Shown piece after piece: positions 28,805 through 49,453 of a DNA stretch of 64,000 nt. A program made the translations under genes and the position numbers. The notes beneath the pieces are model-generated. The model made no database searches. It worked only from the letters and a program-made list of their open reading frames with translations, and was not told where the DNA came from. Source of the DNA: Patescibacteria group bacterium (GTDB lineage Bacteria; Patescibacteriota; Microgenomatia; JAMCZE01); the NCBI GenBank assembly GCA_023380635.1, contig JAMCRP010000001.1, positions 22,613 through 86,612 of the forward strand, in the 5' to 3' direction. The stretch's first letter is position 1; each line of letters starts with the position of its first letter.

Positions 28805-31072
28805 TTAATCCGAAGGGGTTAGTTCGGTCCAGGAATAGGATGGCCGGGAAAGAATGTTTTGATAGATTGTCAGATACTTTGGCTGGTAAATCCACCGTTC
28901 TGCCGGAAGACTGTTGTCACTGACGGCACGATTCAGGCCCAGATCGGAGTTGCCAAAAGCCAGGAGCGAACCGTTGCCGACCAAAGCTCCTAACCCTGCA
29001 CCGTCATCAAAGCTGCCAGGGAAAAGATACACGCCGTCCAGCTGTGACACTGAAGGACTGAGGGTTAAATTTCCTGGATTAAAGGCGTCCGGATTATTTT
29101 GGACAAAGATTATTGAGGAGTTGCCGGTCCCGGTTGTAATATTCTTATTAACAGTTAACGAGCCGTTAATGAAAACAATAATCCGCATGTTTGCTGGAAT
29201 GGTTTTTGCGGTATCGATCGTTTGGGAGTTCGAAATTTTCCACGGGACGATAACCTGAACTGTGTCGGTTTTATCGGCCATTGCTTGGCTCAAGACGCTG
29301 TTGAGATTATCGTTGCTAGTGCCCCAAAAACGGTAGCGATTATTTCCAGAAATGATCGGATCAGCATTGCCAATTGGATACTCGTATCCCCAGACATCAA
29401 ACAAATCGGTTAGAGCTTTTAGGCTGGGAATGCCGGCGTTTTTGAGAACGGTGGCCATTAGGGTTGGGTAATTGGCCTCATTCTTATTGAGCGCACTCGA
29501 ATTGCTTAAGATGTTCATGCCGGGCAAAATCCCGTTTTGGGAGATCCAGCCGTTGCCGCCTGAGCCATAGTTGATGGTCAGATCTTTTGTTTCCACAATC
29601 CCGGCGCTGTTGGGCGGCGGGACGCATTTGCCAGAGTAGCAGGCAACGCCCGAGCCGCAGTTATGGTTGCAGGCGCCGCAGTTTTGCGGGTCATTATTTA
29701 AGTCTGTGCAGGTGCCTGAGCAGATAACTTGACCTGTTCCAGGACAAAAACAAATATTATTAGTGCATGTTGAAGGGGACGGGCAACCCGGGGGGCACTC
29801 TCCGCCGCAGCCGTTATAACCACATTGCTTTCCGGAACAGTAACTAATTCTGGGATCAACAGCGTTACAAGTGTTGGTGTTCCAGGTACCACCATAAATG
29901 CTAGTGCAGGACATAATGCCCGTAACATTACAGGTCCCAAAAGTCTTATAACAGTAGGTGGTGTCAGTTAAGCCGCAGTTGGGGTGTTGCGTAATTGGGG
30001 CGCCGCAACCCTGGTCATAACAGGTTTGGTTACCGGTAGCCTGAGAGCCGCATTGCGGGCAGCCGGTAATCGTTCCGCAGTAGACAGGAATACCGTTACA
30101 GGTATAGTGGGCATAAAAACCGATGCTGGTGCAGGATTGCGGCGGGCTGGCCCACCATTCCCAATAGTAGGGGTAAGGGGTGCCGCAACTGGCAGTTACT
30201 GTCGAATCCTGCTGGTAATATTGCGGCGGACTGTAGCCCGCCCAGGTTATGAAGGTACCGGCTGCTGCGGTAAAAGTAGAGGACCAATTGCCAGCGCCAT
30301 CAACCGGTGCAGTAGCAATATAGTTCCACTGATAATTGGGAGAGCCATAGTCGTAAAGATAAACAGAGCCGTGTGGGGTACCCGGGCCGCCAGAAAGATA
30401 TTCATGTCCTCCAAGGGTAATTGGTTGGCGAAGATTAAAATAGCTGTTCGTGTTAGTAATTTTCCAGCCATCTGTTTGATTAAGGTTATTCATTCCCCAG
30501 CCGGAAACGGTATTGTTGGTTAAGGGAGAGCTAAAGTTAGTGTTCAAGTGAAAATAGAAACTGACGCTCCGCATGGCATAGCCGTTTCCGTTAACCCAAG
30601 TGTCGCAGCCCACAAGATCTACATATTGGTAACCTTCACCGCCTAAATCGCTGCCATCATAAATTGCGGCATAGCCCACCGCTGAAGTGCCATAAGTGCT
30701 GTCAGTGCAGGTTATGAGATCTTTAGTGGCGTTGTAGCCGTTGCCCCAGTATGGAAAATAACCTGTCAGCGACCAGCCGAACTGGCCGCGCATGTTTGAA
30801 TAACTTGGCGGATTTGCATTTGGGCCCTGATAGTTAATGATAACATTGGCGTCTTTGATATTATTTCCGTTGCCACCGGAACTTAAATACCAATCGCCGT
30901 CAGAGACCTGAACAGTGAGAGAATAGACCGTGCTGCCGTCAGCGATTGGTGTCGTGTCGCTAATTCCCGCGTAACGAACAACCGGATAAAAAGCCCGGAC
31001 TGCTTGGGCGCCCTTGGTCAAAAATCCCAGGGCCAAAACAAGGAGTAATAAAAATTTAAGAGCTGATTTCAT
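28805..31072 (-). CDS. Large secreted cysteine-rich surface protein with Stig1-like DPxNCGxC repeats
   Basis: Signal peptide MKSALKFLLLLVLALGFLTKGAQA. Gly/Asn/Tyr/Trp-rich N-terminal region. Central Cys-rich block with repeated CGxC/CxxGxC units (e.g. TDLNNDPQNCGACNHNCGSGVACYSGKC). Asn/Ser-rich C-terminal region; 755 aa. Confidence 0.6.
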   Translation of the reverse strand: MKSALKFLLLLVLALGFLTKGAQAVRAFYPVVRYAGISDTTPIADGSTVYSLTVQVSDGDWYLSSGGNGNNIKDANVIINYQGPNANPPSYSNMRGQFGWSLTGYFPYWGNGYNATKDLITCTDSTYGTSAVGYAAIYDGSDLGGEGYQYVDLVGCDTWVNGNGYAMRSVSFYFHLNTNFSSPLTNNTVSGWGMNNLNQTDGWKITNTNSYFNLRQPITLGGHEYLSGGPGTPHGSVYLYDYGSPNYQWNYIATAPVDGAGNWSSTFTAAAGTFITWAGYSPPQYYQQDSTVTASCGTPYPYYWEWWASPPQSCTSIGFYAHYTCNGIPVYCGTITGCPQCGSQATGNQTCYDQGCGAPITQHPNCGLTDTTYCYKTFGTCNVTGIMSCTSIYGGTWNTNTCNAVDPRISYCSGKQCGYNGCGGECPPGCPSPSTCTNNICFCPGTGQVICSGTCTDLNNDPQNCGACNHNCGSGVACYSGKCVPPPNSAGIVETKDLTINYGSGGNGWISQNGILPGMNILSNSSALNKNEANYPTLMATVLKNAGIPSLKALTDLFDVWGYEYPIGNADPIISGNNRYRFWGTSNDNLNSVLSQAMADKTDTVQVIVPWKISNSQTIDTAKTIPANMRIIVFINGSLTVNKNITTGTGNSSIIFVQNNPDAFNPGNLTLSPSVSQLDGVYLFPGSFDDGAGLGALVGNGSLLAFGNSDLGLNRAVSDNSLPAERWIYQPKYLTIYQNILSRPSYSWTELTPSD

Positions 31073-31772
31073 ACTTTTTCAAAACCTGCTGATACCAATC
31101 GATGAAAGTTTTTCCTAAGCCGGGATTTTGGTCGGTGATGACATTAATCTGATAACCAGTTGGCGACGGTACTAACCCGGGGGTGTAGGACGGGTCTTTA
31201 CCTATAACGGTGATTTTTTGTTCGGAATCATCAATTGGGGCGTTGGGGTTTGCTTTGAGAGTTTCTGCTGCTTTTTGGGCGTCAGCTTCTTTGCCAGCCG
31301 GAAAAGAAATAATCCGAAAGGTAGTATAGCCTTCTATTTTTTGGCGAGCGTCCTGAACCAGTTGCTGATCGTAAGTGAATATTCGGGCCAAAGCCGGGTC
31401 AGTAATGACTTTTCCTTCCGCAGTAAAGGCGCCGGACTTTTCGGCCTCTTGTTTAACTTGGTTCAAGTCAATTTTAAGATTAGGTGCTTCAGCCTCGAGA
31501 ATTTTTCGCTGCTGAACGCGGCTTTTGGCAATGAATTCCAAGGCTTCTTTACTGGGTTTTGCCGACCCTGAGCCGGTCTGAACAGGCTTTTGGAGCAATT
31601 CTTCCAGTTTTTCTGCCTGGGCCAGTTCGTCGGCGGAGACGGTAATTTTCTTTTTGGTAATATTTGTAATTGGCGGCCTTAAGGCACCTCTTTTATAAAG
31701 CACAATCCCCGCCCCTATGCCCGCGACCAAAATAATAATTATTAAGATTATCGGGAGCTTTTTAATTTTCAT
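31056..31772 (-). CDS. Membrane-anchored hypothetical protein (N-terminal TM, extracytoplasmic helical domain)
   Basis: MKIKKLPIILIIIILVAGIGAGIVLY anchor; 238 aa; overlaps flanking genes by a few nt, suggesting co-transcription with the surface-protein genes. Confidence 0.5.
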   Translation of the reverse strand: MKIKKLPIILIIIILVAGIGAGIVLYKRGALRPPITNITKKKITVSADELAQAEKLEELLQKPVQTGSGSAKPSKEALEFIAKSRVQQRKILEAEAPNLKIDLNQVKQEAEKSGAFTAEGKVITDPALARIFTYDQQLVQDARQKIEGYTTFRIISFPAGKEADAQKAAETLKANPNAPIDDSEQKITVIGKDPSYTPGLVPSPTGYQINVITDQNPGLGKTFIDWYQQVLKKYEISS

Positions 31773-33761
31773 TTAGTTTTTTAAATCAATAAAACAGTTA
31801 GAGGTACAACGGTCGGAAATGTTACTCCCCACCACTGTACCATAGACATCGCCCCCTTGCACCTGCCACCAGGGGGGCGGTACCACCTGGATATTGGCCG
31901 TGGTGGCTGAGCACTGGGAGCCGCCGTTAGTTAAGGTGGCCGTGGCGCTAATGTTGGCCGTTTGGGGGCTGGTGACTTTGACGGCCGAAACGATGGCCGT
32001 GGGGTTAGCCGACGGGTCATCGACAGTAATGGCCCCAGTATTGGAAGAAACCCAGTTAATTGAACTAACCGTGGCCGGGCCGGTAATGACCGGAATAGCC
32101 GTAATGCTCCCCTTTCTGTTGAAGTAGAAGGGATTAGGAATGGTAGGGTTTAAAGTCAGGGTACAGGTGGGACTGATAACGGTGATGGGGGCTGTTACCG
32201 GGGTGGAAGCGGTGCAAGTTCCTCCCCCGACAGCCAGGGTGGCTGTCACCGTTACCGTCGTGCTGCCGGCGTAGTTGGCGTGAATGGTGGCCGGGTTGGT
32301 GGTCGGAGTGGTAATCGTGGCGGCGGCCCCGGAGGTCGGGGTCCAGGAAAAAGTCGCGGCCTGCCCGGCAGGAAGAGTGTTTAAAGTCGTGGAAATGGTG
32401 CGATCCTGACTGACATAAAAAGTGCCGGAAGGACTTAAAACCGGGGTGGTTAAAGTGCAGGTAGGGGCCGCGACGGTGACACAAACAGTGTTGGAACAGG
32501 TATTGGTTCCGGGAGAAAGCGGGGCTGAGGCCGTAAAGCAGGTTTGGCCCACGGTCGTCGCACTGGCCCGGATAGTTACAGTACTACCAGTCGTCCCTCC
32601 GGTAAAGTCAGCTGAGGTTCCGGAAGTCCGGGTCCAGGTAATCGTTCCCAGCGTACCGCCGCTGGCGGCAAAATTAGCCGTCAAAGTCCCGGTGTTACCT
32701 AACTGAAAGGGGCTAGGAACATTCGTGGAAATGGTATTGCTAGCGCAAGTGGCCGGAGCCGGAGCGGAAACGGTGATTTGTTTAGCACTGCCGAGGCCAC
32801 AATAGCTCCAGCCGGTGGGATACCCAAAAGGGTTACCGGTGCACCGGCCGTAAGACGCGGCGGAGTTCACCCGGTTGTAGCCTTGGCAATAAACCCAGTA
32901 GGTCCCGGGATTTTGGAAAGTAAGTTGGGTGTTAACGGGGTTAGTCAGTTTAAGGCTGGTATTGGTGGTACTGCCGACCGTGCCATAGGGGCCACTGGCA
33001 TTGTTAGTGGAAGTGGGGCTGGTCCACAGATCGATCATGGTAGCCCCGTTAGCCGGGGTGTTAGTAAAAGTAACCGGCGTGCCGGTAGTGGCTGTTGCCG
33101 GTCCGGACACGGTGCAGGTGGGGTTACAGTAGACAGGCTGGTTACAGGCATCAGCACAGTTACTGATTTCGTTACAGGAACCAGCCGGAACACAGGAACC
33201 GTCAGCCGGGACCCAAAGACATTGTCCCCAGGCAACATCGCCATATTGCTGTAAAGTGGGGTCGCTGTGGACGGCCCGGGGCGGGCTGCCGGGATTGTTG
33301 TAAATATCCTTACACATGGCTTCAGTCCCCACATTTTCCGGCAAAAGGCAAACCGGGGTCCCGTTTAGGTCCAAGGGGTCGCGCCATTCGTGGTTTAAAT
33401 TTGTTCCGGCCGGCGGGCAGGATAGCCCGCTGCAGCCTGCAGAAGGTTGTAAAGTGCATTTTCCGGTACAAACACTGGTCGTGCCGCTACACATTTGCTT
33501 AGCTTCGGTATTAGTATCGCAGTAATAGATTTCTTGACCGCAGAAAGCATTTCCAACAGTACACTTAGAGGAAATTTGAACCCAACCTCCATTAGTAGAA
33601 CAGCCACTGCCGTAATATTCTCCACCAGAACAGGAGTCACAAGTCCAACTTGAGTAACTTTGAAATTGGCAGCCGGCAAGCACGATATTTTTAGAAAAGA
33701 GAAAAAGAAAGCCTATCAATACAAAGGCAAATATAGCTAAAACTAACCGGCGAAGAGCCAT
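31773..33761 (-). CDS. Large secreted Cys- and Thr/Ser/Gly-rich surface protein (paralog A of the gene at 47477-49453)
   Basis: N-terminal TM/signal, Cys-rich N-domain, long Thr/Gly/Ser-rich Ig-like repeats with PTCTLT junctions, conserved C-terminus PPPWWQVQGGDVYGTVVGSNIS; 662 aa; residues ~94-428 identical to paralog B. Confidence 0.6.
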   Translation of the reverse strand: MALRRLVLAIFAFVLIGFLFLFSKNIVLAGCQFQSYSSWTCDSCSGGEYYGSGCSTNGGWVQISSKCTVGNAFCGQEIYYCDTNTEAKQMCSGTTSVCTGKCTLQPSAGCSGLSCPPAGTNLNHEWRDPLDLNGTPVCLLPENVGTEAMCKDIYNNPGSPPRAVHSDPTLQQYGDVAWGQCLWVPADGSCVPAGSCNEISNCADACNQPVYCNPTCTVSGPATATTGTPVTFTNTPANGATMIDLWTSPTSTNNASGPYGTVGSTTNTSLKLTNPVNTQLTFQNPGTYWVYCQGYNRVNSAASYGRCTGNPFGYPTGWSYCGLGSAKQITVSAPAPATCASNTISTNVPSPFQLGNTGTLTANFAASGGTLGTITWTRTSGTSADFTGGTTGSTVTIRASATTVGQTCFTASAPLSPGTNTCSNTVCVTVAAPTCTLTTPVLSPSGTFYVSQDRTISTTLNTLPAGQAATFSWTPTSGAAATITTPTTNPATIHANYAGSTTVTVTATLAVGGGTCTASTPVTAPITVISPTCTLTLNPTIPNPFYFNRKGSITAIPVITGPATVSSINWVSSNTGAITVDDPSANPTAIVSAVKVTSPQTANISATATLTNGGSQCSATTANIQVVPPPWWQVQGGDVYGTVVGSNISDRCTSNCFIDLKN
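32473..33479. repeat. ~1007-bp tract exactly identical to 48177-49183 (offset 15704 bp) within the paralogous surface-protein genes
   Basis: Track ORFs 32422-32706/48126-48410, 32778-33254/48482-48958 and 33035-33334/48739-49038 translate identically. Manual alignment shows exact identity from 32473/48177 to 33479/49183. Flanks are ~80 percent identical on one side and diverge within ~30 bp on the other. Confidence 0.8.
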
Positions 33762-33807
33762 TAATTCAGATTAGCCTTTTTACTCCCCGGCCGTCAAGAG
33801 GATTTAT

Positions 33808-34398
33808 TTATTTCTTGGAAGACAAGTTCTGAAGGCTTTGAGCGGCTTTAACAAAAGCGAGATGATCGGGCATGGGCTTGTTTCCATCCAGGACGGTTCG
33901 CTGTTCCCAGTGAACTCCTCCGTCGACTGAGGACCAAATGCCAAAACCGGTATTAAAAGAAGGATAGACGCCCATAACATAAATGTCTTTTCCCAAAGCG
34001 ACACCGTCTTTAAAGAAACCTATGGCTTCCCCTTTAATCCCCGGGGTCGGGTCTTTGGTTTCGCTCAGAGATGTCCGGTACCATTGCTGAGAGCCTATTT
34101 CCCGTACTAAAACCGATCCCGGAAAGCTGCCGGCAGGATCGTTAGAGTTAAGCATCATAATTTCCGTCCTATGAGTCAGATCTTGAATCTTTTTTCCGCC
34201 ATACAAATGGGCGAGATCTTCGGGCTTATTGCCGGGTAGAGGGACGTACGCGCCAAAAACGGTGACATTCACGGTTTTAGCTTCAAGTTCTTGTGCGGGC
34301 AGAGAATGAACGACAGCTGCACCGCCAATGGCCATCCCGGTAGCAACACCAGCTATGACCCCGGTCTTAGCAAGTTTGTCTCTAGTTTCTTGCCCCAT
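33808..34398 (-). CDS. Membrane-anchored hypothetical protein with a BNR/Asp-box-like motif (SSVDGGVHW)
   Basis: N-terminal TM (GVIAGVATGMAIGGAAVV); S-x-D-G-G-x-x-W near C-terminus; 196 aa. Confidence 0.45.
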   Translation of the reverse strand: MGQETRDKLAKTGVIAGVATGMAIGGAAVVHSLPAQELEAKTVNVTVFGAYVPLPGNKPEDLAHLYGGKKIQDLTHRTEIMMLNSNDPAGSFPGSVLVREIGSQQWYRTSLSETKDPTPGIKGEAIGFFKDGVALGKDIYVMGVYPSFNTGFGIWSSVDGGVHWEQRTVLDGNKPMPDHLAFVKAAQSLQNLSSKK

Positions 34399-34448
34399 AG
34401 TTTTAATAATAAATTATAAGCATACTTTGTTTTATGTGTCAAGTATTT

Positions 34449-35417
34449 TTAATAACCCACGCACTGGAAAGCTGACGCGGAAGTTAACAGACGCTCAACT
34501 TCCTTAGGACTTTTGTCATAAAGTTTCCCCAAGCGGGTAAAGAGTTCTTCGGCGGGCATGCGATGGCCAAGACGGTTGGCCGGGTCTTCCCGGACCCAAT
34601 TTCGGTTGCTGTTAACCATGGCGGCAAAAAGATGCGGTTTATCCGGCTGGTTGAATTGCGCTGCGGCAGCGCGGAAAGCTTCGGCTCCGGCGTCATAATC
34701 AAAAGACCCGGTACTGTTAAGGCGGCAACCCTTAAATTTTGGGGTTTTGATCTCCGGGGTAAAAGCGTGGCTCGCCTCCAACTCGGCAAAGCGGGCGGTA
34801 GATTCTTCCATTCCCTGCCAAGGTTGGCCTTTCCATTCCAGTTCGATCAGTTCGTGAGTCCATTCATGGATAATCTGACCGGGGCTGCCCAGTTCTACCC
34901 GTCCGAAATATTTAAAGCCCCACCCCCCATCATTAATGCGGACAATATTAATATTCGGCAAAGTGCTTTCCAGGTATTGTGGCTCAACTCCCAAGCGCAA
35001 AAAAGTAAAAACTCCCACATAAGCGTCGGCCCGGACATAGCCCTTTTCTTCTTCAGTCCAGGGAATAATCTTTGCTCCTCCGAGGCTCGGAGCATTTTCA
35101 AAGGGCAGCTTGGCGACAATTTCCCGGGCAATCTGGTCAAAGCGGTCAAACTCTTCCATGCCGACAGCCGCCTGAGCTGTGGCCCGAATGTTTTTCTCCG
35201 GCTGGCTCTCGGGAAGCGGTGGTAATTCTACCGGAGATATTTCTGCAGCCGGAGGCAGATTTGGCTGGTCATGGGAGAGAAAACGGCTAAGGAAATTGAT
35301 GGCCGGTCTGGCCATAAAAGCTGTTCCCGCAGTAATAATAAGGGCTGACAAGCCCAGTTCTACTTTGCGTTTAGTGGCTTTTCCCAAGCCAAATTCCGCT
35401 GGCGACGCATCATTCAT
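34449..35417 (-). CDS. Putative secreted/membrane-anchored zinc metallopeptidase-like protein (HExxH motif)
   Basis: IHEWTHELIE contains HExxH; N-terminal hydrophobic anchor (LGLSALIITAGTAFMA); 322 aa; divergently oriented to pilB. Confidence 0.5.
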   Translation of the reverse strand: MNDASPAEFGLGKATKRKVELGLSALIITAGTAFMARPAINFLSRFLSHDQPNLPPAAEISPVELPPLPESQPEKNIRATAQAAVGMEEFDRFDQIAREIVAKLPFENAPSLGGAKIIPWTEEEKGYVRADAYVGVFTFLRLGVEPQYLESTLPNINIVRINDGGWGFKYFGRVELGSPGQIIHEWTHELIELEWKGQPWQGMEESTARFAELEASHAFTPEIKTPKFKGCRLNSTGSFDYDAGAEAFRAAAAQFNQPDKPHLFAAMVNSNRNWVREDPANRLGHRMPAEELFTRLGKLYDKSPKEVERLLTSASAFQCVGY

Positions 35418-35491
35418 AGCTGGTTCTTTCCATCTTACACCCTTTTTCCCGCTTTGACAGGGGTTTAAGAAACATAGTACATTAATAGTGT

Positions 35492-40962: not shown

Positions 40963-41439
40963 ATGATTAAACTGCCTAATAAAAGTAAAAAAGGTTTCAC
41001 CCTGGTCGAGTTGATGATCGTTATCACGGTTATCGCCATTCTGGCAACGATTGCGGTAGTGTCTTTCACCCGGGTGCAGAAACAGGCGCGGGATACGAAG
41101 AGGAAGGCAGAAGTGAAGTCTCTTCAGACTGCCCTTCAAGCTTATTACACCGAGCATCAGGCCTACCCGATTTCAACGACGGCAATTACAACTGAGGACG
41201 TGAATACCGTGTTAACAGGACTATCTCCGGACTATATGTCGTCTTTGCCGATTGCTCCTTTGGGGTCAACGGGTAACTATCAAAAATACACTTACATCAC
41301 GACCGATGACGGGTTTAGATACGCTATTTGTGTGGACCTAGAGACGGCGGCTGTCGGACAAGAACTTTGGGTTGTAAATACCCAAAATTCAGCCGGTGAA
41401 GGTATTGCTGACGCTGCTGGTGCTTGTGTACCCAAGTAA
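40963..41439 (+). CDS. Type IV pilin paralog 4 (likely the major pilin: own promoter-like region and strong terminator)
   Basis: MIKLPNKSKKGFTLVELMIVITVIAILATIAVVSF; ~70 percent nt identity to paralog 3 over the N-terminal half; C-terminal Cys pair; 158 aa. Confidence 0.8.
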   Translation: MIKLPNKSKKGFTLVELMIVITVIAILATIAVVSFTRVQKQARDTKRKAEVKSLQTALQAYYTEHQAYPISTTAITTEDVNTVLTGLSPDYMSSLPIAPLGSTGNYQKYTYITTDDGFRYAICVDLETAAVGQELWVVNTQNSAGEGIADAAGACVPK

Positions 41440-41441
41440 TT

Positions 41442-41497
41442 CTTTACTCGCGCGAGTAAAGAAGCAAAAAACCCTGCCCTAACCGGTGGGGTTTTTG
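41442..41497 (+). terminator. Rho-independent terminator(s) after the pilin array
   Basis: Perfect palindrome tttactcgcgcgagtaaa (41443-41460), then aaaaaccctgcc-ctaacc-ggtggggttttt (A-tract, 12-bp stem with two G-U pairs, T-tract), likely bidirectional. Confidence 0.6.
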
Positions 41498-41510
41498 GTA
41501 GTATTAGACC

Positions 41511-42281
41511 ATGAGAGAAATAGGAGAAATTGGGTTGATTGGGATATTTGGATTAATCATCGGCAGTTTTCTCAATGTCCTAATCTGGCGGCTAAATGAC
41601 CCGAAAGCGCCGAAATTTTGGCAGGGGCGAAGCATCTGTCCTCAGTGCAAACACCAGATCGCCTGGTTTGACAACCTTCCCCTGCTCTCCTATCTGCTGC
41701 TGCGAGGTCGTTGCCGCTCCTGCAAAAAGCCGATTAGTTGGCAATATCCCCTGGTCGAATTTTTGACAGGGATTTTTTTTGTTTTGGCGTGGGTTTTGAC
41801 GCCCGGATTGGGGATATTGGGGAAATTGGGGGTGTTGGGTATCGCTGCAGCTCTGGAAGTAATTTTCTTTTCCGATTTAATTTATGGCTTTATCCCCGAT
41901 GAAATGCTTTTGGTCATTGGAATTTTAAAATTGATTGAAAATTGGAAATTGAAAAATGAAAATTGGGGCTTAGATTTTCTAGCAGGATTAATTGCCATGC
42001 TATTGTTCTACCTAATTTATAAAATAACCAAAGAACGCGGCTTGGGTTTTGGGGATGTTAAATTTGCTTTTCTGATGGGCTTTCTACTCGGTTGGCCGAA
42101 AATTGCTGTGGGTTTGTGGGTGGCTTTTGTCTCTGGCGGTCTGGTGGCGATAATTTTATTGGCGTTGCGCCGGACAAAACTTTCTGCCACAATGGCTCTA
42201 GGGCCATTTTTGGTAATTGGCACTTTCTTTGCTGCCCTATGGACAAATACCGTTCTTACCATTCTCGGGCTTACACCCTGA
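41511..42281 (+). CDS. pilD: Prepilin peptidase PilD (A24 family, with N-terminal zinc-finger)
   Basis: CPQCKHQIAWFDNLPLLSYLLLRGRCRSCKKPI tetracysteine motif, GFGDVKF catalytic Asp region, 7-8 TM; 256 aa. Confidence 0.85.
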   Translation: MREIGEIGLIGIFGLIIGSFLNVLIWRLNDPKAPKFWQGRSICPQCKHQIAWFDNLPLLSYLLLRGRCRSCKKPISWQYPLVEFLTGIFFVLAWVLTPGLGILGKLGVLGIAAALEVIFFSDLIYGFIPDEMLLVIGILKLIENWKLKNENWGLDFLAGLIAMLLFYLIYKITKERGLGFGDVKFAFLMGFLLGWPKIAVGLWVAFVSGGLVAIILLALRRTKLSATMALGPFLVIGTFFAALWTNTVLTILGLTP

Positions 42282-42805
42282 TCGAACTGCTGATCTCTTT
42301 AGCCATCATGGCCATAATCGGGGTGCTGGCTTTTTACGGCATTCAAGATTTCAATGTTAACCAGGCGGTGTCCGATGCTCAGCATAACTTTATTTCTGAT
42401 CTGCGGGCCACGCAAAACCAGGCGGCTCTCGGAGCAGACGGAGTCAATTTTAAGACGGTGTGGGTAAACACCGGTTCTCCGGATCAGTACACGATTTCTT
42501 ATACCGTTCCTCTTTCAAATAATCTGGTTTCTGTAACTAAAATACTCCCGACCGGAGTCACGGTTTCGGCTCCCAATCCGGCAAATTTTACGGTTTGTTT
42601 GGCCAACCCCAAGCTGACCGGATATACCACCGGACAATGCGGCAACTGTGCCGTAGCTGGTTCAGAAGCGTTTTTTGCTTGCAACAACGGGACGAAAGTT
42701 GATAGTAACTATCTGGATGTGACCTTCTCCCGGGGCTCGGTTTCCAAAACTGTCCGCATCGAAGGCAATGGTATGGATATCAGCAGAATATATGCGCTCG
42801 ACTAG
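42239..42805 (+). CDS. Minor pilin / pseudopilin with atypical prepilin cleavage site (…SRA|YTLIELL)
   Basis: Track ORF begins at 42092 inside pilD. First in-frame ATG after that is 42239 (MDKYRSYHSRAYTLIELLISLAIMAIIG). Hydrophobic prepilin-type N-terminus with Glu at +5; 188 aa from this start. Confidence 0.5.
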   Translation: MDKYRSYHSRAYTLIELLISLAIMAIIGVLAFYGIQDFNVNQAVSDAQHNFISDLRATQNQAALGADGVNFKTVWVNTGSPDQYTISYTVPLSNNLVSVTKILPTGVTVSAPNPANFTVCLANPKLTGYTTGQCGNCAVAGSEAFFACNNGTKVDSNYLDVTFSRGSVSKTVRIEGNGMDISRIYALD

Positions 42806-43238
42806 AGGCATGACCCTTATCGAAACCATCCTCGCCCTTTTAGTGCTGGCGGCCGTGACTTCGGCGGTAATCCTGCTTTTGACCCAGATTATGGCCCTAA
42901 CCACTTCCGCCCGGCTGCGAAATACCGCTACAGCGATGGCGGAACAAAACCTGGAGAAAATCAGGAGCTTTTATCAGGTTAATTTTTGGATGAATCTGGC
43001 TAACAAAGGCTCTTCCGGCGGAACCTGCTATATTGATACTGCCGGAATTTTAAATTTAGACACCGGAGCGACTTGTGTGACGGATTGCAGCAGTTTGGGC
43101 AGCAACGGTTTTCGCCAAAATGTAAAGTTGACGACCGATTCTGGCCTTAGCCGGGTTCAGGTCGATTCGTCGGTCTGGTGGCAGGACAAGGGGGCTTGTC
43201 AGCACCTTACCTCCACGACTTATTATTTTAATTACTGA
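42792..43238 (+). CDS. Minor pilin / pseudopilin
   Basis: MRSTRGMTLIETILALLVLAAVTSAVILL: leader ending in G, Met+1, Glu+5; start at the internal Met of the track ORF 42768-43238. Confidence 0.55.
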   Translation: MRSTRGMTLIETILALLVLAAVTSAVILLLTQIMALTTSARLRNTATAMAEQNLEKIRSFYQVNFWMNLANKGSSGGTCYIDTAGILNLDTGATCVTDCSSLGSNGFRQNVKLTTDSGLSRVQVDSSVWWQDKGACQHLTSTTYYFNY

Positions 43239-43798
43239 TGCGTAAGGGCTTTACTCTGATCGAAATTATTGTCGTTATCGCCGTTTTCGGCGTTTTAATG
43301 CTAGCCGGAACAAGTTTTTTAATATCAGTTATCCGTAATGCCAATCAGGTGCGGATTCAAAACGATGTCCGCCAGACGGCCAGTCAAATTATGGAAGACA
43401 TTGCTTCGGAAATGCGTTCGGCGACAGATGTCACTTTCTCGTCCGGCTTAACGCAGAATGTTTTGACTATCACTAATACCACGATTGTGCCAAGCAGAAC
43501 AGTGGTATATACAGCTTATAATACCGGGAAACTGACGAAAACAGTTAATAGCGGAGCGCCGTTGGATTTTACTTCGGATAATAATGACACCACTTCTCAA
43601 AGCGAGGCGGTTGTTTTGGATACTTCTGCTGTTTCCTGTGATGACAGCCTTCATGCGGCCAAGGGTCTGCAGGTGGTTGTGGGGACTAACCTGGCTACTG
43701 ATATTACCCTGACTCTTCAGCAGGCAACGAAATATGTCACTCCCGATTTTTGTGCCCGAATCCAGCTTAAAAATACCCTGGTGCCAAGACGGTACTAG
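43238..43798 (+). CDS. Minor pilin (GspJ/PilW-like)
   Basis: MRKGFTLIEIIVVIAVFGVLMLAGTSF prepilin N-terminus; 186 aa. Confidence 0.65.
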   Translation: MRKGFTLIEIIVVIAVFGVLMLAGTSFLISVIRNANQVRIQNDVRQTASQIMEDIASEMRSATDVTFSSGLTQNVLTITNTTIVPSRTVVYTAYNTGKLTKTVNSGAPLDFTSDNNDTTSQSEAVVLDTSAVSCDDSLHAAKGLQVVVGTNLATDITLTLQQATKYVTPDFCARIQLKNTLVPRRY

Positions 43799-43834
43799 AC
43801 GATGCGGCAAATTTTACGCTATCATGTACTTAAG

Positions 43835-44698
43835 ATGATAAAAACCAGGCGCGGGCAGGTGATGGTTTTAGTCCTCCTTTTGTCCCTGATGGGACTGACA
43901 GTCGGTTTGGCCACCGCTTCCAGGTCGCTGTCCGATTTAAAACAGATCTCTTATGTTGATCAGGGCACCAAAGCTTTTGCCGGAGCGGAAGCCGGGTTGG
44001 AATATGTTTTAAACATGTTGGGCAATGTGTCGACTCTTGACCCGACTTGGTGTACGAGCGACCAATCGATCTCCTCTACTGACTTGAGTATTACCGGGGT
44101 TAAAAGCCTGACTTATCGGGTTTGTTCCCACACCGCTAATCAGACAATTTATCCCAACTTGGCCAAGGATAATGTAATGCAAATCAATTACAACAATGTT
44201 AGCAACACAAAACTTTTTACGATTTTTTGGAAATCACCGGCGGCAATTGAGGCAATTCGGGTGGATAAATCGAACCTTATTACCCGGTATGCTTATAACC
44301 CTTATAATCCTACGGGGAGCATAGTGGCTAATAATCTGCTGAGTTCTTATTCGACCGGTGATGTCATTAACTGTCCGTCGAGTTGTCTAAATGGAGTTCC
44401 GGATTCCGGAAGCTACACCAGTTGCAGCGGCGGTTCTAACAGTTCAAATGCTATTCCCTATGTGCCTAACGACCAGTTTCTGCGGATAAAAGCGCTTTAT
44501 TCATCGACCCCGGTGGTTATTTGTGCGGTTAATTCGGGAAACAGCGCGGTGAATATGCCTGAGGCTTATACCGTTATCACCATGACGGCCACAACGGATA
44601 ACGGTACGGTTAAAAGACTGCAGGTGACAAAGTTGCCTCCGGCTCTTCCTTCCATTTTTGATTACGCGATTTATTCCGGCGGACAAATAGCCAAGTAA
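43835..44698 (+). CDS. PilX-like pilus assembly protein (PilX N-terminal domain)
   Basis: MIKTRRGQVMVLVLLLSLMGLTVGLATASRSLSDL resembles the PilX_N consensus (RGxALVxVLLLLxxLTLLGLAAxRSS); 287 aa from the Met at 43835 (track ORF starts at 43802). Confidence 0.5.
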   Translation: MIKTRRGQVMVLVLLLSLMGLTVGLATASRSLSDLKQISYVDQGTKAFAGAEAGLEYVLNMLGNVSTLDPTWCTSDQSISSTDLSITGVKSLTYRVCSHTANQTIYPNLAKDNVMQINYNNVSNTKLFTIFWKSPAAIEAIRVDKSNLITRYAYNPYNPTGSIVANNLLSSYSTGDVINCPSSCLNGVPDSGSYTSCSGGSNSSNAIPYVPNDQFLRIKALYSSTPVVICAVNSGNSAVNMPEAYTVITMTATTDNGTVKRLQVTKLPPALPSIFDYAIYSGGQIAK

Positions 44699-44713
44699 CA
44701 GTTATTCCTGCCC

Positions 44714-45751
44714 ATGAAATTTCAATCTCATATCGGTTTAGACATTGGTTCTCAGGGGATTAAACTGGTCCAGCTTTCAGTTTCCGGCCCGGATAAATTT
44801 TCTCTTTCAGCCATTGGCCAGATTAACACCCCGCCGGTTGGCGCCAATCAGGTGGAAGCCAATGAAGCTAAAGTCGAGACAATCAAAAAGCTTTTGCACG
44901 ATAGCCACGCCGGGAGTCGTCAGGCAGTCATCTCTCTTCCCGAATCCCAAGTTTATACCCGGGTAATCGAAATGCCAAGAATGTCGGAAGCGGAATTGGC
45001 GCAGGCGATTCGCTGGCAGGCGGAGCAGTATATTCCCGTACCCCTGTCCGATGTAGTTTTAAAACACCAACTGCTATCGGGTTCTGACGAGAGTGACAGT
45101 CCGGACGCGAAATGTAATGTCTTATTAATTGCCGCGCCTAATTTACTCTTAAATAGTTATGTCAGCCTTCTTTCCCGGGCCGGCTTGGAAACCGTGGCCA
45201 TCGAAACGGAGATTTTAGCCGTGGCCCGCGCCTTAGTTGGTGCGGACGCTTTTTCCCCCACTTCCCTGCTGGTACACATGGGGGCGGAAACGACAACCCT
45301 GTCAATTATTTCCCGCGGGAATTTGTCGTTAACCCAAAGTATTTCCACCGGCGGCATGGCTATTTCCCGGGCGGTCGCCTCGAGTCTGGGGCTGGAAATT
45401 AATCAGGCGGAAGAATACAAACGCTCTTACGGGATGGACGAAACCAAGCTGGAAGGCAAAGTTGTGACGGCGATCAAACCGATGATTGATTTAGTTCTGG
45501 CAGAGATCAAAAAAGTGCTGGCGTTTTACGAAACCCACGGCTTCAAAGATCCGGTAAAACGGGTGGTACTTTCCGGCGGCACGGCTCTTCTACCCGGCTT
45601 GGTGGGTTATCTGAGCGTTAATCTGGAAGTCGAGGTTCAGGTTGGTAATCCCTTCCTGAGTGTAAATCTTTCTGACAAGCAGCGCCAGGAGCTTGGCGAA
45701 AACGGTCCGCTTTACGCTACTGCTGTCGGACTGGCTCAAAAACAGACATGA
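44714..45751 (+). CDS. pilM: Type IV pilus assembly protein PilM (actin-like ATPase fold)
   Basis: IGLDIGSQGIKLVQL N-terminal motif and FtsA/actin-like fold signatures (LSGGTALLPGL); 345 aa. Confidence 0.8.
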   Translation: MKFQSHIGLDIGSQGIKLVQLSVSGPDKFSLSAIGQINTPPVGANQVEANEAKVETIKKLLHDSHAGSRQAVISLPESQVYTRVIEMPRMSEAELAQAIRWQAEQYIPVPLSDVVLKHQLLSGSDESDSPDAKCNVLLIAAPNLLLNSYVSLLSRAGLETVAIETEILAVARALVGADAFSPTSLLVHMGAETTTLSIISRGNLSLTQSISTGGMAISRAVASSLGLEINQAEEYKRSYGMDETKLEGKVVTAIKPMIDLVLAEIKKVLAFYETHGFKDPVKRVVLSGGTALLPGLVGYLSVNLEVEVQVGNPFLSVNLSDKQRQELGENGPLYATAVGLAQKQT

Positions 45752-46290
45752 TTGATATTAATCTCCTGCCACCGCAAAACGTGCTCTCACAAAAAGAGAA
45801 AATCCTACGAAGTCAACTGACTGTCGCGGCTATTATCGGAGGCGTGGTGACGGCTCTAGTTTTAGGGTCATTAGCTCTGATCAACGCTTACTACTCTGCC
45901 CGCCTGTCAGCGGTCGCGGCCCGACGGACCAGTCTCACGGCGCAGTTTAATGCTGTTCAAAAAACCGCTCTGGATTTGCGCCTGATTAAGGATAAAATAG
46001 CCGGAATTAATTCCATCAAAACTTCCCAGACGCAATTTCCTCCGATTCTGGATGATCTAACAGCCCTGTTTTCCGGAGGTTTTCAGCTAACCCAGCTTTC
46101 TGTTGATCAAACGCAAAAGACCAGCTTTGCCGGAATAACCGCCGGGCCGGAGTCTTTTAACACCCTGCTGGGTCGGATTATTGCCGGTCGGGATGCAAAC
46201 AAGTACGGGCAAATCGAACTTTCCGGCTTACGGGAAAACAAGGACAAGACTTTGAGTTTTTCAATTCAGATGCTTTATGAAAACAAATAA
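45748..46290 (+). CDS. pilN: Type IV pilus assembly protein PilN
   Basis: MIDINLLPP... start typical of PilN, single TM then coiled coil; 4-nt overlap with pilM; 180 aa. Confidence 0.65.
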   Translation: MIDINLLPPQNVLSQKEKILRSQLTVAAIIGGVVTALVLGSLALINAYYSARLSAVAARRTSLTAQFNAVQKTALDLRLIKDKIAGINSIKTSQTQFPPILDDLTALFSGGFQLTQLSVDQTQKTSFAGITAGPESFNTLLGRIIAGRDANKYGQIELSGLRENKDKTLSFSIQMLYENK

Positions 46291-46981
46291 TAGCCTGGAT
46301 TTGAAAAAAATTAGGCCTTATTTTTTCTTCATTTTCCTTTTTGTGGTTTTTGCCGCCGAGCTTGGGGTTCTGGTGATCTTTGCTCCGTCGTTGTATTCGA
46401 CAATTCTTTCGGCCCGGGCGTCTTTGGCCGCACAGACGGCGGAAGTCAACACTCTTTCTGACCTAGTGACAGCTCTTAACCAGACAGACCCCGCTAATTT
46501 AGCGGCTCTGCAAAAGAAAGTGACGGCTGCTTTGCCGGATGAGAAAAAAACTGCCGGGGTGGTGACGGGCTTAACTCGCCTGGCTTCGAGTTCCGGAGTG
46601 GTGGTTAACAGCCTGGAATTTTCCCCGGGACTGATTTCTACCGGTTCAGCAACGGCGGTCGTGACAAATACTTCCGGCGAAATAGTCTTAGGTGGCGGTG
46701 TTAAAGCCATTCCGGCCCAGTTGACGGTTACGGCTGATGTTCCGGCTGTCTCTCGTTTTTTGGCGGACTTGGCCAAATCCAGCCAGATGATCGGGGTAAC
46801 CAGCGTTGAATACACTCATTCCGGTCCCAAGACAAGCACCGCCCTGGGACTTTTACTTTATTTTCAACCGCCAAAAGAAGGGGCCGTTACTCCCAAACAA
46901 GTTCAGCCTTTAACTTCCCAGGAGGTTGGTTTAGCCCAGAGTTTGCCGCAGGAGGATATTTTTACTGTTGCGCCAGAGTAA
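46277..46981 (+). CDS. PilO-like pilus assembly protein
   Basis: Single TM, coiled-coil then beta-rich periplasmic-type domain, positioned after pilN; 234 aa. Confidence 0.5.
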   Translation: MKTNNSLDLKKIRPYFFFIFLFVVFAAELGVLVIFAPSLYSTILSARASLAAQTAEVNTLSDLVTALNQTDPANLAALQKKVTAALPDEKKTAGVVTGLTRLASSSGVVVNSLEFSPGLISTGSATAVVTNTSGEIVLGGGVKAIPAQLTVTADVPAVSRFLADLAKSSQMIGVTSVEYTHSGPKTSTALGLLLYFQPPKEGAVTPKQVQPLTSQEVGLAQSLPQEDIFTVAPE

Positions 46982-47195
46982 CATTAACCCTGGTGTTTTG
47001 TTTCACGGCCAAAATACGCACCAGGTCGCGGATGGCTTTAATAATCCGGCCGCCCTTACCAATGACTTTGCCCATGTCCGGTTGAGCCACGGTCAGATTT
47101 AAATTTACAAAGCCTTCATTGTTGATTTCTTCCACGGCCACGGCTTCCGGCTCATCAACGATATTTTTAACCAGATATTCTAAAAGGTCTTTCAT
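46962..47195 (-). CDS. KH-domain RNA-binding protein (YlqC/UPF0109 family)
   Basis: VIGKGGRIIKAIRDLV (GxxG KH loop); immediately downstream of rpsP as in many bacteria; 77 aa. Confidence 0.8.
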   Translation of the reverse strand: MKDLLEYLVKNIVDEPEAVAVEEINNEGFVNLNLTVAQPDMGKVIGKGGRIIKAIRDLVRILAVKQNTRVNVTLAQQ

Positions 47196-47434
47196 TATTT
47201 AGCGTTTTTCCTTAGAAGAGCTTCGACAGTAGCAGTGGGTTTGGCGCCAACGGACAACCAGTAATCAACCCTCTCTTTTTTCAGTTCCAGTTTGTTGTCA
47301 GGGCTATGCGGATCATAGGTTCCCACAATTTCCCGGGCTTTCCCGTCTCTTTTGAGGTGTTCATCAATGGCAATAAGACGGTAAACGGGGTTTCCGGTTT
47401 TGCCAAATCTGGATAGTCTAAGTTTTACAGCCAT
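47195..47434 (-). CDS. rpsP: 30S ribosomal protein S16
   Basis: MAVKLRLSRFGKTGNPVYRLIAIDEHLKRDGKAREIVGTYDP is canonical S16; 79 aa. Confidence 0.9.
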   Translation of the reverse strand: MAVKLRLSRFGKTGNPVYRLIAIDEHLKRDGKAREIVGTYDPHSPDNKLELKKERVDYWLSVGAKPTATVEALLRKNAK

Positions 47435-47476
47435 GGAGTGATTTTACTATTTCCGCAGCCTTGATGCAATCACCGT

Positions 47477-49453
47477 CTAGTTTTTCAAATTAATATAGCA
47501 GTTAGATGAACAGGAAGGTGAAATGTTACTCCCCACCACTGTACCATAGACATCGCCCCCTTGCACCTGCCACCAGGGGGGCGGTACCACCTGGATATTG
47601 GCCGTGGTGGCTGAGCACTGGGCACCGCCGGGGGTTAAAGTGGCGGTGGCGGTCACGGCGGCTGTTTGGGGGCTAGTCACTTTGACGGCGGAAACGATCG
47701 TGGTCGGGTCAGCGGCGGGGTTATCGATCGTAATCGCGCCGGGGTTGGAAGAGACCCACTGAACGGTTCTTGACTGGATAGGGCCGGTGACCACAATATT
47801 AGCCGTGATACTCCCCTTGCGGTTAAAGTAAAACGGATTGGGAATGGTCGGACTTAGGGTCATAGTGCAGGTGGGGTTAACCACCGTAATGGGGCTGGCA
47901 ACCGGGGTCGTAGCGGTGCAGGTGTTTCCTCCGACATTAAGCGTGGCGGTGACGGTGACGGCCGTGCTGCCGGCGTAATTAGCGTGGATGGTAGCTGGAT
48001 TGGTTGTGGGGGTGGTAATGGTGGCAGCGGCTCCAGAGGTCGGAGTCCAGGAAAAAGTCGCGGCCTGTCCGAGAGGGTTGGTGGTTAAAACGGAAGAAAT
48101 GCTGCGGTCCTGGCCGGTGTAAAAAGTGTCGGACGGATTTAAAACCGGCGGGGTTAAAGTGCAGGTGGGGGCAGCCACGGTGACACAAACAGTGTTGGAA
48201 CAGGTATTGGTTCCGGGAGAAAGCGGGGCTGAGGCCGTAAAGCAGGTTTGGCCCACGGTCGTCGCACTGGCCCGGATAGTTACAGTACTACCAGTCGTCC
48301 CTCCGGTAAAGTCAGCTGAGGTTCCGGAAGTCCGGGTCCAGGTAATCGTTCCCAGCGTACCGCCGCTGGCGGCAAAATTAGCCGTCAAAGTCCCGGTGTT
48401 ACCTAACTGAAAGGGGCTAGGAACATTCGTGGAAATGGTATTGCTAGCGCAAGTGGCCGGAGCCGGAGCGGAAACGGTGATTTGTTTAGCACTGCCGAGG
48501 CCACAATAGCTCCAGCCGGTGGGATACCCAAAAGGGTTACCGGTGCACCGGCCGTAAGACGCGGCGGAGTTCACCCGGTTGTAGCCTTGGCAATAAACCC
48601 AGTAGGTCCCGGGATTTTGGAAAGTAAGTTGGGTGTTAACGGGGTTAGTCAGTTTAAGGCTGGTATTGGTGGTACTGCCGACCGTGCCATAGGGGCCACT
48701 GGCATTGTTAGTGGAAGTGGGGCTGGTCCACAGATCGATCATGGTAGCCCCGTTAGCCGGGGTGTTAGTAAAAGTAACCGGCGTGCCGGTAGTGGCTGTT
48801 GCCGGTCCGGACACGGTGCAGGTGGGGTTACAGTAGACAGGCTGGTTACAGGCATCAGCACAGTTACTGATTTCGTTACAGGAACCAGCCGGAACACAGG
48901 AACCGTCAGCCGGGACCCAAAGACATTGTCCCCAGGCAACATCGCCATATTGCTGTAAAGTGGGGTCGCTGTGGACGGCCCGGGGCGGGCTGCCGGGATT
49001 GTTGTAAATATCCTTACACATGGCTTCAGTCCCCACATTTTCCGGCAAAAGGCAAACCGGGGTCCCGTTTAGGTCCAAGGGGTCGCGCCATTCGTGGTTT
49101 AAATTTGTTCCGGCCGGCGGGCAGGATAGCCCGCTGCAGCCTGCAGAAGGTTGTAAAGTGCATTTTCCGGTACAAACACTGGTGGTCCCGCTGCACATCT
49201 GTTTGGCTTCTGCCGGACTACCACATTGATAAGTTTGTGAATAGTTACACGATTCTCCAGCACTACAACCGTCATGAATAGTGACACTTGAGTTACTGAC
49301 GCTACATGATCCTCCTACGGGACAGACTCCGCCACCACAAGCAAACCAATCATTAGTCATGGTACAGCCCGCAAAGACTTGGTTGTGCAGAAGAGGAAGA
49401 GTAAAAAGAAGTGATAACCAAATAAAAACAAAAATGGCGACTTTTTGCCCCAC
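47477..49453 (-). CDS. Large secreted Cys- and Thr/Ser/Gly-rich surface protein (paralog B of the gene at 31773-33761)
   Basis: 658 aa; N-terminal hydrophobic segment; central 335 aa identical to paralog A; C-terminal third ~80 percent identical including the PPPWWQVQGGDVYGTVVGSNIS terminus. Confidence 0.6.
   Translation of the reverse strand: MGQKVAIFVFIWLSLLFTLPLLHNQVFAGCTMTNDWFACGGGVCPVGGSCSVSNSSVTIHDGCSAGESCNYSQTYQCGSPAEAKQMCSGTTSVCTGKCTLQPSAGCSGLSCPPAGTNLNHEWRDPLDLNGTPVCLLPENVGTEAMCKDIYNNPGSPPRAVHSDPTLQQYGDVAWGQCLWVPADGSCVPAGSCNEISNCADACNQPVYCNPTCTVSGPATATTGTPVTFTNTPANGATMIDLWTSPTSTNNASGPYGTVGSTTNTSLKLTNPVNTQLTFQNPGTYWVYCQGYNRVNSAASYGRCTGNPFGYPTGWSYCGLGSAKQITVSAPAPATCASNTISTNVPSPFQLGNTGTLTANFAASGGTLGTITWTRTSGTSADFTGGTTGSTVTIRASATTVGQTCFTASAPLSPGTNTCSNTVCVTVAAPTCTLTPPVLNPSDTFYTGQDRSISSVLTTNPLGQAATFSWTPTSGAAATITTPTTNPATIHANYAGSTAVTVTATLNVGGNTCTATTPVASPITVVNPTCTMTLSPTIPNPFYFNRKGSITANIVVTGPIQSRTVQWVSSNPGAITIDNPAADPTTIVSAVKVTSPQTAAVTATATLTPGGAQCSATTANIQVVPPPWWQVQGGDVYGTVVGSNISPSCSSNCYINLKN
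48177..49183. repeat. Second copy of the exact ~1007-bp repeat (see 32473-33479)
   Basis: Same evidence as for the first copy. Confidence 0.8.

Follow-up and report, generated by a model that had tools for sequence, protein, structure and literature searches.

Type IV pili that lack a secretin and contain PilT are known from Saccharibacteria and have been tested there (PMC11623550, PMC10633639). For strain TM7x, it has been proposed that the pilus makes the first contact and that separate surface adhesins then act at close range (PMC11623550, PMC10633639). Pili and separate protein adhesins are both required in a few cultured Saccharibacteria, and host recognition outside this group is poorly understood (PMC10633639, PMC11623550). 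Here we analyzed a 64 kb window (the whole stretch of DNA studied, from contig JAMCRP010000001.1) of a Patescibacteria metagenome-assembled genome, in which a type IV pilus operon lies between two islands of genes for membrane and secreted proteins, among them three large ones, p755, p662 and p658. An earlier sequence-only reading had suggested that the pilus and these proteins form one functional surface module. We found that p755 belongs to a widespread family of modular surface proteins that lacks annotation and is described here for the first time; its members share a C-terminal β-solenoid, while their lectin-like heads are exchangeable. The tail of its recurring partner, represented by p662 and p658, appears from sequence comparison to be the detached lead segment of the solenoid module. 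Loci fetched for comparison are given L numbers and matched proteins P numbers.

The solenoid protein and its C-terminal module

The genes in question are the following.

28805-31072, minus strand: p755, the solenoid protein, 755 aa (NCBI M1403_00325)
31056-31772, minus strand: p238, a single-pass membrane protein between p662 and p755, transmembrane segment within aa 1-31
31773-33761, minus strand: p662, the tail protein, 662 aa, with a lipobox-like leader (LAGC, Cys31)
47477-49453, minus strand: p658, a paralog of p662 (NCBI M1403_00435), with an FAGC leader and the same tail (DNA 47480-47590)

The 755-, 238-, 662-, 196- and 322-aa reading frames listed earlier and the 658-aa paralog were all found, each with an N-terminal signal or transmembrane segment. 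The earlier description of the large proteins as secreted, modular and adhesin-like also held: Ig-like and Cys-rich domains occur in them together with a β-solenoid of the fold class seen in ComZ, tapirins, SRRP and TPS adhesins. In p755, a Sec signal (aa 1-24) is followed by an N-domain (~25-215), a Cys-rich Stig1-like part (~325-480) and the C-terminal module (aa 480-755; DNA 28808-29635). The protein had no Pfam match at E<=0.1 and stayed below every family threshold, including that of Stig1 (PF04885). What is left of its earlier classification as Stig1-like is that the Cys-rich part matches proteins that carry PF04885.

An exhaustive phmmer search with p755 against 1.84 billion representatives gave 1189 matches, which fell into three classes. 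The first consisted of many multi-repeat proteins that matched the Cys-rich spacer (aa ~420-495). The second came from the N-domain (aa ~25-210), which resembles a domain repeated in P0031, P0068, P0089 and P0135; tblastn found the same domain in P0021 and P0037. The third comprised proteins of 230-1274 aa that matched the last ~270 residues (aa 480-753). Their N-terminal parts were unrelated (discoidin-like, LamG, Ig-like or Cys-rich), including among genomes whose GyrB proteins are 81-86% identical. The module ended at the final residue in 53 of 54 proteins.

A structural model of the module (pLDDT 83) has the triangular β-solenoid with accompanying helix that is seen in DUF3494 (type-1) ice-binding proteins and in ComZ. 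The fold comparison ranked DUF3494-type ice-binding proteins first (12.6-11.3), then ComZ (9.6, with 186 residues aligned), and the β-helices of SRRP, tapirin, TPS and autotransporter proteins at 6-8. According to the ComZ paper, the nearest fold of the ComZ solenoid is itself an ice-binding protein (PMC6561018). Therefore, the match to ComZ reflects the fold class and carries no pilus-specific signal. The invariant positions of the module are mostly Gly or aromatic, that is, structural, and the most conserved stretch is PAExWxYQPKYL.

At E<=0.1, none of 40 module members matched Pfam DUF3494. Four of the 40 had a distant match to DUF7305 (PF23981, profile positions ~40-180), with P0069 alone above its threshold (29.5 vs 27 bits) and p755 showing none. 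We considered DUF7305 as a link to the pilus and dropped it: an association with PilX_N and ComZ was not confirmed, no paper that mentions the family was found, and no sequence link to the ComZ structure 6qvi was found. An ice-binding function was also set aside; the fold is its only argument, and nothing suggests ice binding. Word-indexed searches with p662, p755 and the C-terminal module found next to nothing, with Cys- and Thr-rich words swamping the candidates; that with p755 returned p755 itself and weak matches to Stig1-type Cys repeats. Foldseek found no significant match in PDB or BFVD, and PDB sequence searches with p662, p755, the module profile and a DUF7305 segment gave nothing useful. 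A single-sequence AlphaFold2 model of full-length p755 (pLDDT 35) was not used.

A member of the family in L010 (7757-10933) is an uninterrupted 1058-aa reading frame with a signal peptide, about 20 Cys-rich repeats and the solenoid module, which the source gene caller had split into a 310-aa protein and wrong-frame fragments. Public protein sets probably miss some of the repetitive Cys-rich genes of the p755 family.

The tail proteins

Behind its leader, p662 has a Cys-rich region (aa 31-212, 20 Cys), an Ig-like domain (213-336) that matches repeats of P0068 (5e-8), and three mutually related Big_2-like repeats (337-626; z 6-7). It ends in the C-terminal tail WWQVQGGDVYGTVVGSNISDRCTSNCFIDLKN (DNA 31776-31886; 36-aa form PPPWWQVQGGDVYGTVVGSNISDRCTSNCFIDLKN). 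The leader sequence VLAGC of p662 fits the lipobox pattern [LVI][ASTVI][GAS]C, with Cys31 as its cysteine, and VFAGC of p658 is near-canonical. The transferase needed for lipidation is encoded in the window:

9649-10680, plus strand: lgt, prolipoprotein diacylglyceryl transferase (PF01790, 1.2e-20)

Lipid anchoring of p662 and p658 is therefore possible, and p662 probably carries an N-terminal lipid anchor. In the window, Lgt carries a DksA/TraR-type C4 zinc finger (zf-dskA_traR) as a C-terminal fusion, which is also annotated in L014 (2047-3030).

The large island proteins have Sec-type leaders and contain 4-5% Cys. In a regex scan, no G/FTLIE motif was found in the leaders of p755, p662 and p658, which are of the Sec or lipobox type. 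These three proteins have neither the prepilin leader nor the hydrophobic pilin helix of a pilin or a ComZ-like tip pilin. No C-terminus of these proteins has the sortase signal of an LPXTG motif, hydrophobic stretch and basic tail. Thus, of the signals proposed for checking, secretion was found in the form of Sec-type leaders and sortase anchoring was not.

p662 and p658 share 83% amino acid identity. A tract of 1007 bp (32473-33479) is exactly repeated at 48177-49183, inside genes that are otherwise diverged: the C-terminal coding part beside the tract has dS ~0.9 and dN/dS 0.18, and substitutions are close to saturation in the N-terminal part. An old duplication followed by recent gene conversion of the tract would account for this, or else a collapse in the metagenome assembly. 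The tail itself has a dN/dS of 0.30 between the two proteins, indicating purifying selection. We looked for a wider duplication of the islands and rejected it; the other pairs of island proteins, p322 with p407 and p196 with p105, have no real similarity, and only p662 and p658 are paralogous.

Tail proteins and solenoid proteins in related loci

The tail is a motif of ~35 aa, WWQV-GGDV...[FY]I-L-N. Six proteins end in it; they come from five loci if the copies in L010 and L011 are counted once. Besides p662 and p658, these are a 707-aa protein of L010/L011 (...LYYQVTGGDVYGTIITSQIPSTIPNVCQGYINLSN), an 890-aa protein of L015, a 450-aa protein of L016 and a 364-aa protein of L018. The gene order tail protein, small membrane protein or proteins, solenoid protein recurs in the window, L015, L016 and L018. 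The solenoid protein is encoded within 1-3 genes of the tail protein, with one or two small single-pass membrane proteins between them. In L010, where the solenoid protein also lies within 1-3 genes, the tail protein has its own N-terminal transmembrane anchor. The cassette of L018 was predicted beforehand and then confirmed by look-up.

About 23 of the 36 evaluable solenoid proteins carry a corresponding motif in cis, [WFY][WFY]Q[VTA]xGGDV...G.I.S.LP....F.ID, directly upstream of a segment ...AG[IV][IV].... Aligned to these single-chain homologs, the p662 tail ends where the p755 module begins, at its ...AGIV... segment. Judged from sequence, this is a Rosetta-stone pattern, with two polypeptides here corresponding to what appears as one chain elsewhere. 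A hidden Markov model (HMM) built from the cis leads only recovered the tails of L018, L015 and L016 at extreme C-termini among 2430 reading frames (E 6.5e-10, 3.7e-9 and 6.3e-9). The reciprocal HMM, built from the window and L010 tails, found the cis lead of P0012 (5.7e-5) and the L015 tail (1.8e-3). A tail protein in trans was present in five of six loci with a lead-less solenoid protein and in none of five with a cis lead (Fisher test on these related loci, p=0.015). Given that these loci are not independent, the complementary distribution of cis and trans leads is no more than suggestive.

We propose that the islands encode a self-contained cell-surface cassette of two proteins, of adhesin type and not part of the pilus; we consider this reading about as likely to be right as wrong. 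In it, p755 would be a Sec-secreted protein with exchangeable N-terminal domains, a Cys-rich spacer and the conserved ~270-aa module. p662 or p658 would consist of a lipid anchor, a Cys-rich domain, four Ig-like domains acting as a stalk, and the ~35-aa tail. The tail would dock in trans onto the p755 solenoid, so that the presumably ligand-binding N-terminal domains of p755 become tethered to the envelope, and p238 may help in anchoring or assembly. In single-chain relatives the lead motif seems to lie where the first coil of the fold would be. In the canonical DUF3494 fold, the first coil is packed beside the last one (PMC11645318). This would give a structural reason for a first element supplied in trans to bind near PAExWxYQPKYL.

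The docking idea can be taken further, to a p755 solenoid that is a split fold whose first coil comes in trans from the p662 or p658 tail. The result would be a two-chain adhesin tethered to the envelope, with stalk and head independently exchangeable through recombination between islands. More boldly, the C-terminal end of the PilX_N-type minor pilin described below might capture the solenoid at the pilus tip and so couple the cassette to the pilus. We regard this extension as doubtful.

Several observations weigh against the two-protein cassette. The window tails matched the cis-lead HMM weakly (p662 E 0.016-0.07, p658 E 0.11-0.35), although they ranked next after the three tails named above. 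About 13 of the 36 solenoid proteins have no cis lead and presumably still fold, and L019 encodes a lead-less solenoid protein without any tail protein in its island; because of these cases, the tail is not structurally obligatory. The middle small membrane proteins are not homologous across all loci, and p238 is an orphan. The loci compared are few and phylogenetically related. The island adjoins pilB in three genomes (the window, L010 and L019), so that a functional tie to the pilus is conceivable. Finally, the adhesive function and the binding of a ligand are putative.

Two of the small membrane-anchored proteins just upstream of a solenoid gene, in L016 (4277-4717) and L019 (882-1283), are homologous and cupredoxin-like. 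They share the motif ...IE[IV]NYT..GF.PAK.T[IV]KKGTV[IV]VFYNK..., which has no counterpart in the window.

The pilus operon and the backbone around the islands

The pilus operon of the window contains the following genes.

35492-37243, plus strand: pilB, extension ATPase (PF00437 T2SSE, 7.9e-127, and PF05157 MshEN)
37245-38312, plus strand: pilT, retraction ATPase, 355 aa (PF00437, 4.4e-44, without the MshEN domain)
38321-39532, plus strand: pilC, platform protein (PF00482 T2SSF, 1.2e-61, two stretches)
39546-40025, 40029-40448, 40445-40858 and 40963-41439, plus strand: four pilins, each with PF07963 N_methyl and a G/FTLIE-type leader
41511-42281, plus strand: pilD, prepilin peptidase (PF06750 A24_N, 1.5e-33, and PF01478 Peptidase_A24)
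~42239-42805 (start inferred), 42768-43238 and 43238-43798, plus strand: three minor pilins (PF07963 N_methyl)
43802-44698, plus strand: a PilX_N-type minor pilin, 298 aa (PF14341, 4.5e-4, under the gathering score; syntenic in L001)
44714-45751, plus strand: pilM (PF11104 PilM_2, 2.2e-49)
45748-46290, plus strand: a pilN-like gene (by position, a single transmembrane segment and similarity to the gene that follows pilM in L001)
46277-46981, plus strand: a pilO-like gene (weak, sub-threshold PilO match, 3.4e-3)

The pilus machinery is complete, secretin-less and ordinary for the phylum. Pfam profiles confirmed what had been read from the sequence for pilB, pilT, pilC, the four pilins, pilD and pilM, weakly for pilO, and for the lack of a secretin. 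No secretin occurs among the reading frames of >=300 aa in the window, all of which were assigned elsewhere or are the proteins in question, and the outer-membrane secretin PilQ with PilP, which marks a diderm type IVa pilus, was not seen among the scanned reading frames of the 64 kb window, the rest of the 559-kb contig lying outside the analysis. PilB, PilC and PilD are those of a monoderm-type retractile type IV pilus, and PilT and PilM/N/O accompany them, with PilO sub-threshold and PilN identified by position. Seven proteins of the operon combine PF07963 with the G/FTLIE-type motif of class III leaders that undergo N-methylation. The four minor pilins claimed earlier, one of them PilX-like, resolved into three N_methyl proteins and one PilX_N protein.

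Around the operon, the region is a conserved backbone, gyrA, H+-pyrophosphatase (PPase), gyrB, holB, then pilB to pilO, khpA and rpsP, then rnc and nusB. Two lineage-variable islands interrupt it, between holB and pilB and between rpsP and rnc. The genes that border them are these.

28238-28789, minus strand: a holB-like gene, DNA polymerase III delta-prime (TIGR00678, 1e-18), the left island boundary and outside the system
46962-47195 and 47195-47434, minus strand: a KhpA-type KH gene (PF13083, 3.3e-23) and rpsP (PF00886, 1.1e-20), in the same order in L001

Beyond the holB-like gene lie gyrB, the H+-pyrophosphatase gene and gyrA, and holB adjoins p755 homologs in L006, L010/L011, L018 and L019. 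The upstream island, divergent from pilB, contains five genes (p322, p196, p662, p238 and p755) and not six as counted before, the supposed sixth being the holB-like gene. Downstream of pilO come, on the opposite strand, the KH gene, rpsP, p658, p105 and p407, and then rnc and nusB; the paralog is thus not the immediate neighbor of pilO. None of the eight island proteins matched Pfam, NCBIfam or PHROGs at meaningful levels, and with zero PHROGs matches there was no sign of a prophage origin.

A scan of the genome collection with PilC found one locus, L001 (CAYPLU010000007.1), and a metagenome scan found four contigs that were too short to show the flanks. L001 is 84% identical to the window in GyrB and 58% in PilC. 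Its order is PPase, gyrB, holB, divergent pilB to pilO, KH gene, rpsP, rnc and nusB, with the pilus operon intact and both islands empty. Because L001 has neither of them, the blocks 28790-35491 and 47435-51132 are lineage-specific. The record of L001 is labeled 'uncultured Gammaproteobacteria bacterium'; its gene order and protein identities of 58-84% fit the Patescibacteria window, and the label is likely wrong.

The left part of the window (MFS-Lgt-RluA-NhaP-TGT-LytR_C-TPR-YebC-RuvC-DUF5656-Xer, 8.3-20.9 kb) is syntenic with L013 and L014. In both, the junction of RluA and NhaP, which measures 25 bp in the window, has received a p755-family gene and a gene without assigned family. Therefore, together with L001, at least three junctions of one backbone host such genes. 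The neighborhood is accordingly conserved in part: the position between pilB and holB recurs in L010 and L019, and other islands are used in L013 and L014.

The Xer-type recombinase gene of L014 (16141-18027) contains an intein with a LAGLIDADG endonuclease domain, according to the source Pfam annotation, and the window ortholog (19924-20856) is without it. IS200/IS605-type Y1 transposase genes lie a few kb from the tail-solenoid cassette in L016 (11139-11822) and L018 (237-893) and are a possible route for its movement between islands.

Alternatives to the two-protein cassette

In the reading closest to the earlier proposal, p755 and/or p662 and p658 are displayed on the type IV pilus or handed to it, for example in a tip minor-pilin complex, for host attachment or DNA binding, with ComZ, PilY1/PilC or the tapirins as analogs. 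The p755-family gene does lie in the interval from holB to pilB, in the window as well as in L010/L011 (PilB 79%, PilC 70%) and L019 (PilB 65% over its visible part), and tapirins are β-helix adhesins encoded near a type IV pilus locus (bioRxiv 10.1101/359786). The C-terminus of the PilX_N protein, ...FDYAIYSGGQIAK, loosely resembles the WWQV-GGDV motif by direct reading. In L017 (162-2449; GCA_039738335.1), the gene of a solenoid protein that stands alone (195 aa) shares 4 nt with the start of the gene of a 567-aa pilin, KKGFTLIELLVV....

However, L001 keeps the operon intact without the islands, and the homologs in L007, L008 and L012-L016 lie elsewhere or far from T2SSE/T2SSF genes. No such gene was found within the available flanks of the homologs in L007, L008/L009, L012, L015 and L016, where the neighbors are thioredoxin genes, Wzy/glycosyltransferase genes and cohesin/dockerin-like surface proteins. 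The scatter relative to pilus genes that had been named as evidence against a common module was thus largely found outside one clade. The linkage of p755 homologs to holB-gyrB is as tight as that to pilB (L006, L018, L019). The proteins have Sec and not prepilin leaders, p658 is set apart by rpsP and the KH gene, and most of the upstream island has its own promoter match (see below). We therefore do not support a functional module of pilus plus adhesins and judge display on the pilus unlikely. The co-localization is clade-limited synteny at a recombination-prone junction, which is compatible with a functional link and gives no evidence for one.

The L017 pilin contains several Asp-box (BNR-like) motifs and is a β-propeller-type modular pilin like TM7x PilX2.

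Next to the solenoid genes, cohesin proteins with an LPNTG/LPGTG sortase signal are encoded beside large Cys-rich proteins in L007 (13832-18062), L008 (12793-16789), L012 (7547-11649) and L015 (11152-14715). The large Cys-rich neighbors have a dockerin-like motif, ...EINILDFSCFAKYYGKEVGKN, at their ends. These Patescibacteria may thus display proteins on their surface through cohesin-dockerin pairs, as in a cellulosome.

Alternatively, the island genes may encode surface or antigenic proteins that are independent of each other, evolve fast and have no mutual interaction, with the tail a vestige of a truncated module and the islands mere hot spots. The use of three different islands in one backbone would fit, as would the unrelated N-terminal parts of close relatives, the gene-conversion tract between the paralogs, the IS200-like Y1 transposase genes beside the cassette in L016 and L018, and the lack of a tail protein in L019. 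Decay could hardly explain the recurrent gene order and the complementary cis and trans leads, however, and all six proteins keep the tail as their very end, with purifying selection on it in p662 and p658. We consider this reading improbable. Least of all do we expect an enzymatic module, such as a lyase or hydrolase for polysaccharides of the host cell wall or capsule, since its best matches are non-enzymatic ice-binding-protein and ComZ solenoids, the 40 members include no Pfam lyase or hydrolase family, the invariant residues look structural, and a conserved module behind variable lectin-like N-termini (LamG, discoidin) suits a scaffold and not a catalytic head.

Other island genes and promoter-like sites

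The remaining genes of the two islands are these.

34449-35417, minus strand: p322, membrane-associated, with the motif HEWTH; opens the upstream island and diverges from pilB, without a Pfam, NCBIfam or PHROG match
33808-34398, minus strand: p196, an orphan single-pass membrane protein (hydrophobic segment aa 12-31)
49496-49813 and 49824-51047, minus strand: p105 and p407, orphans (membrane or secreted proteins) that make up the rest of the downstream island and are absent from L001

p322 has one detectable homolog, at the head of the L018 island (BLASTP 2e-11), in which HEDAH aligns with HEWTH. The HExxH motif pointed out earlier is thus aligned in one homolog, and no peptidase family model of Pfam or NCBIfam matches; p322 may be a membrane-bound metallopeptidase-like protein. 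The island protein previously called BNR-like has a single Asp-box-like motif and no family support. p196, p238, p105 and p407 have no homolog in any fetched locus. For p238 we considered a SurA/PrsA-like foldase, as PF13624 (SurA_N_3) matched at E 0.036 (14.3 bits vs a cutoff of 27.2). The idea was dropped; p238 has no similarity to the SurA_N-like part of the 707-aa L010 protein.

A perfect (12/12) match to the sigma-70 consensus, TTGACA-18-TATAAT, lies at 34442-34413 on the minus strand, in the 50-bp gap between p322 and p196. Promoter-like sites also precede p658, p105 and p407, and other matches in the region reach 9-10 of 12; all of these are consensus matches only. The idea that one divergent promoter serves both pilB and the adhesin genes was rejected: only p322 faces pilB, and p196 to p755 have their own consensus match. 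Residues 33-39 of p407 (SRRKFMG), followed by a hydrophobic stretch, resemble a twin-arginine (Tat) signal, and the true start may be Met32. Tat export would be unusual for a Patescibacterium.

Comparison with known systems

With the two pili of TM7x (Nanosynbacter lyticus T4P-1 and T4P-2; PMC11623550, PMC10633639), the window shares PilB, PilT, PilC, PilD, pilins, a large PilX-type minor pilin and PilMNO, and the lack of a secretin. The host-binding element shown experimentally in TM7x is the minor pilin PilX2 (PMC11623550, PMC10633639). No non-pilin adhesin cassette beside the operon is described there; the flanking proteins of the window are not pilins.

The tapirins of Caldicellulosiruptor (bioRxiv 10.1101/359786; PDB 6n2b, 6n2c, 4wa0) have no sequence homology to the module, and in them the β-helix itself binds cellulose. 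They also have no tail-protein partner; in the window family, by contrast, the solenoid is conserved and the N-termini vary. ComZ, the tip pilin of the Thermus thermophilus competence pilus, has its solenoid inserted in a pilin fold and assembled in the fibre (PDB 6qvi; PMC6561018), whereas p755 starts with a Sec signal and contains no pilin domain. Compared with the DUF3494 (type-1) ice-binding proteins (PDB 5uyt, 7bwx, 3wp9, 6bg8; PMC11645318), the module here follows large adhesin-like regions, nearly always as the C-terminal end, and its members have no Pfam match to DUF3494. The CxxC-rich spacer of p755 matches Stig1-like and MXAN_6577-like proteins (PF04885, NF041328) with 5-24 repeats, but falls below every threshold; this repeat is a spacer and not a defining feature of the cassette. 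The window proteins also differ from sortase-anchored proteins by lacking the C-terminal signal that the cohesin proteins of L007 and L008 have.

If the docking is true, the tail and lead motifs would offer a sequence handle for candidate host-specificity determinants across the phylum. It would also be a simple protein-protein interaction, in which a split β-solenoid is used in surface assembly. If it is false, the analysis still corrects the guilt-by-association link of the flanking proteins to the pilus.

Chaperone-usher pili offer a purely mechanistic analogy: a terminal element of one chain completes or caps the fold of another non-covalently, by donor-strand complementation. In the proposed cassette, where the interaction is one that we infer, the completed fold would be a β-solenoid instead of an Ig-like domain, with no chaperone or usher taking part.

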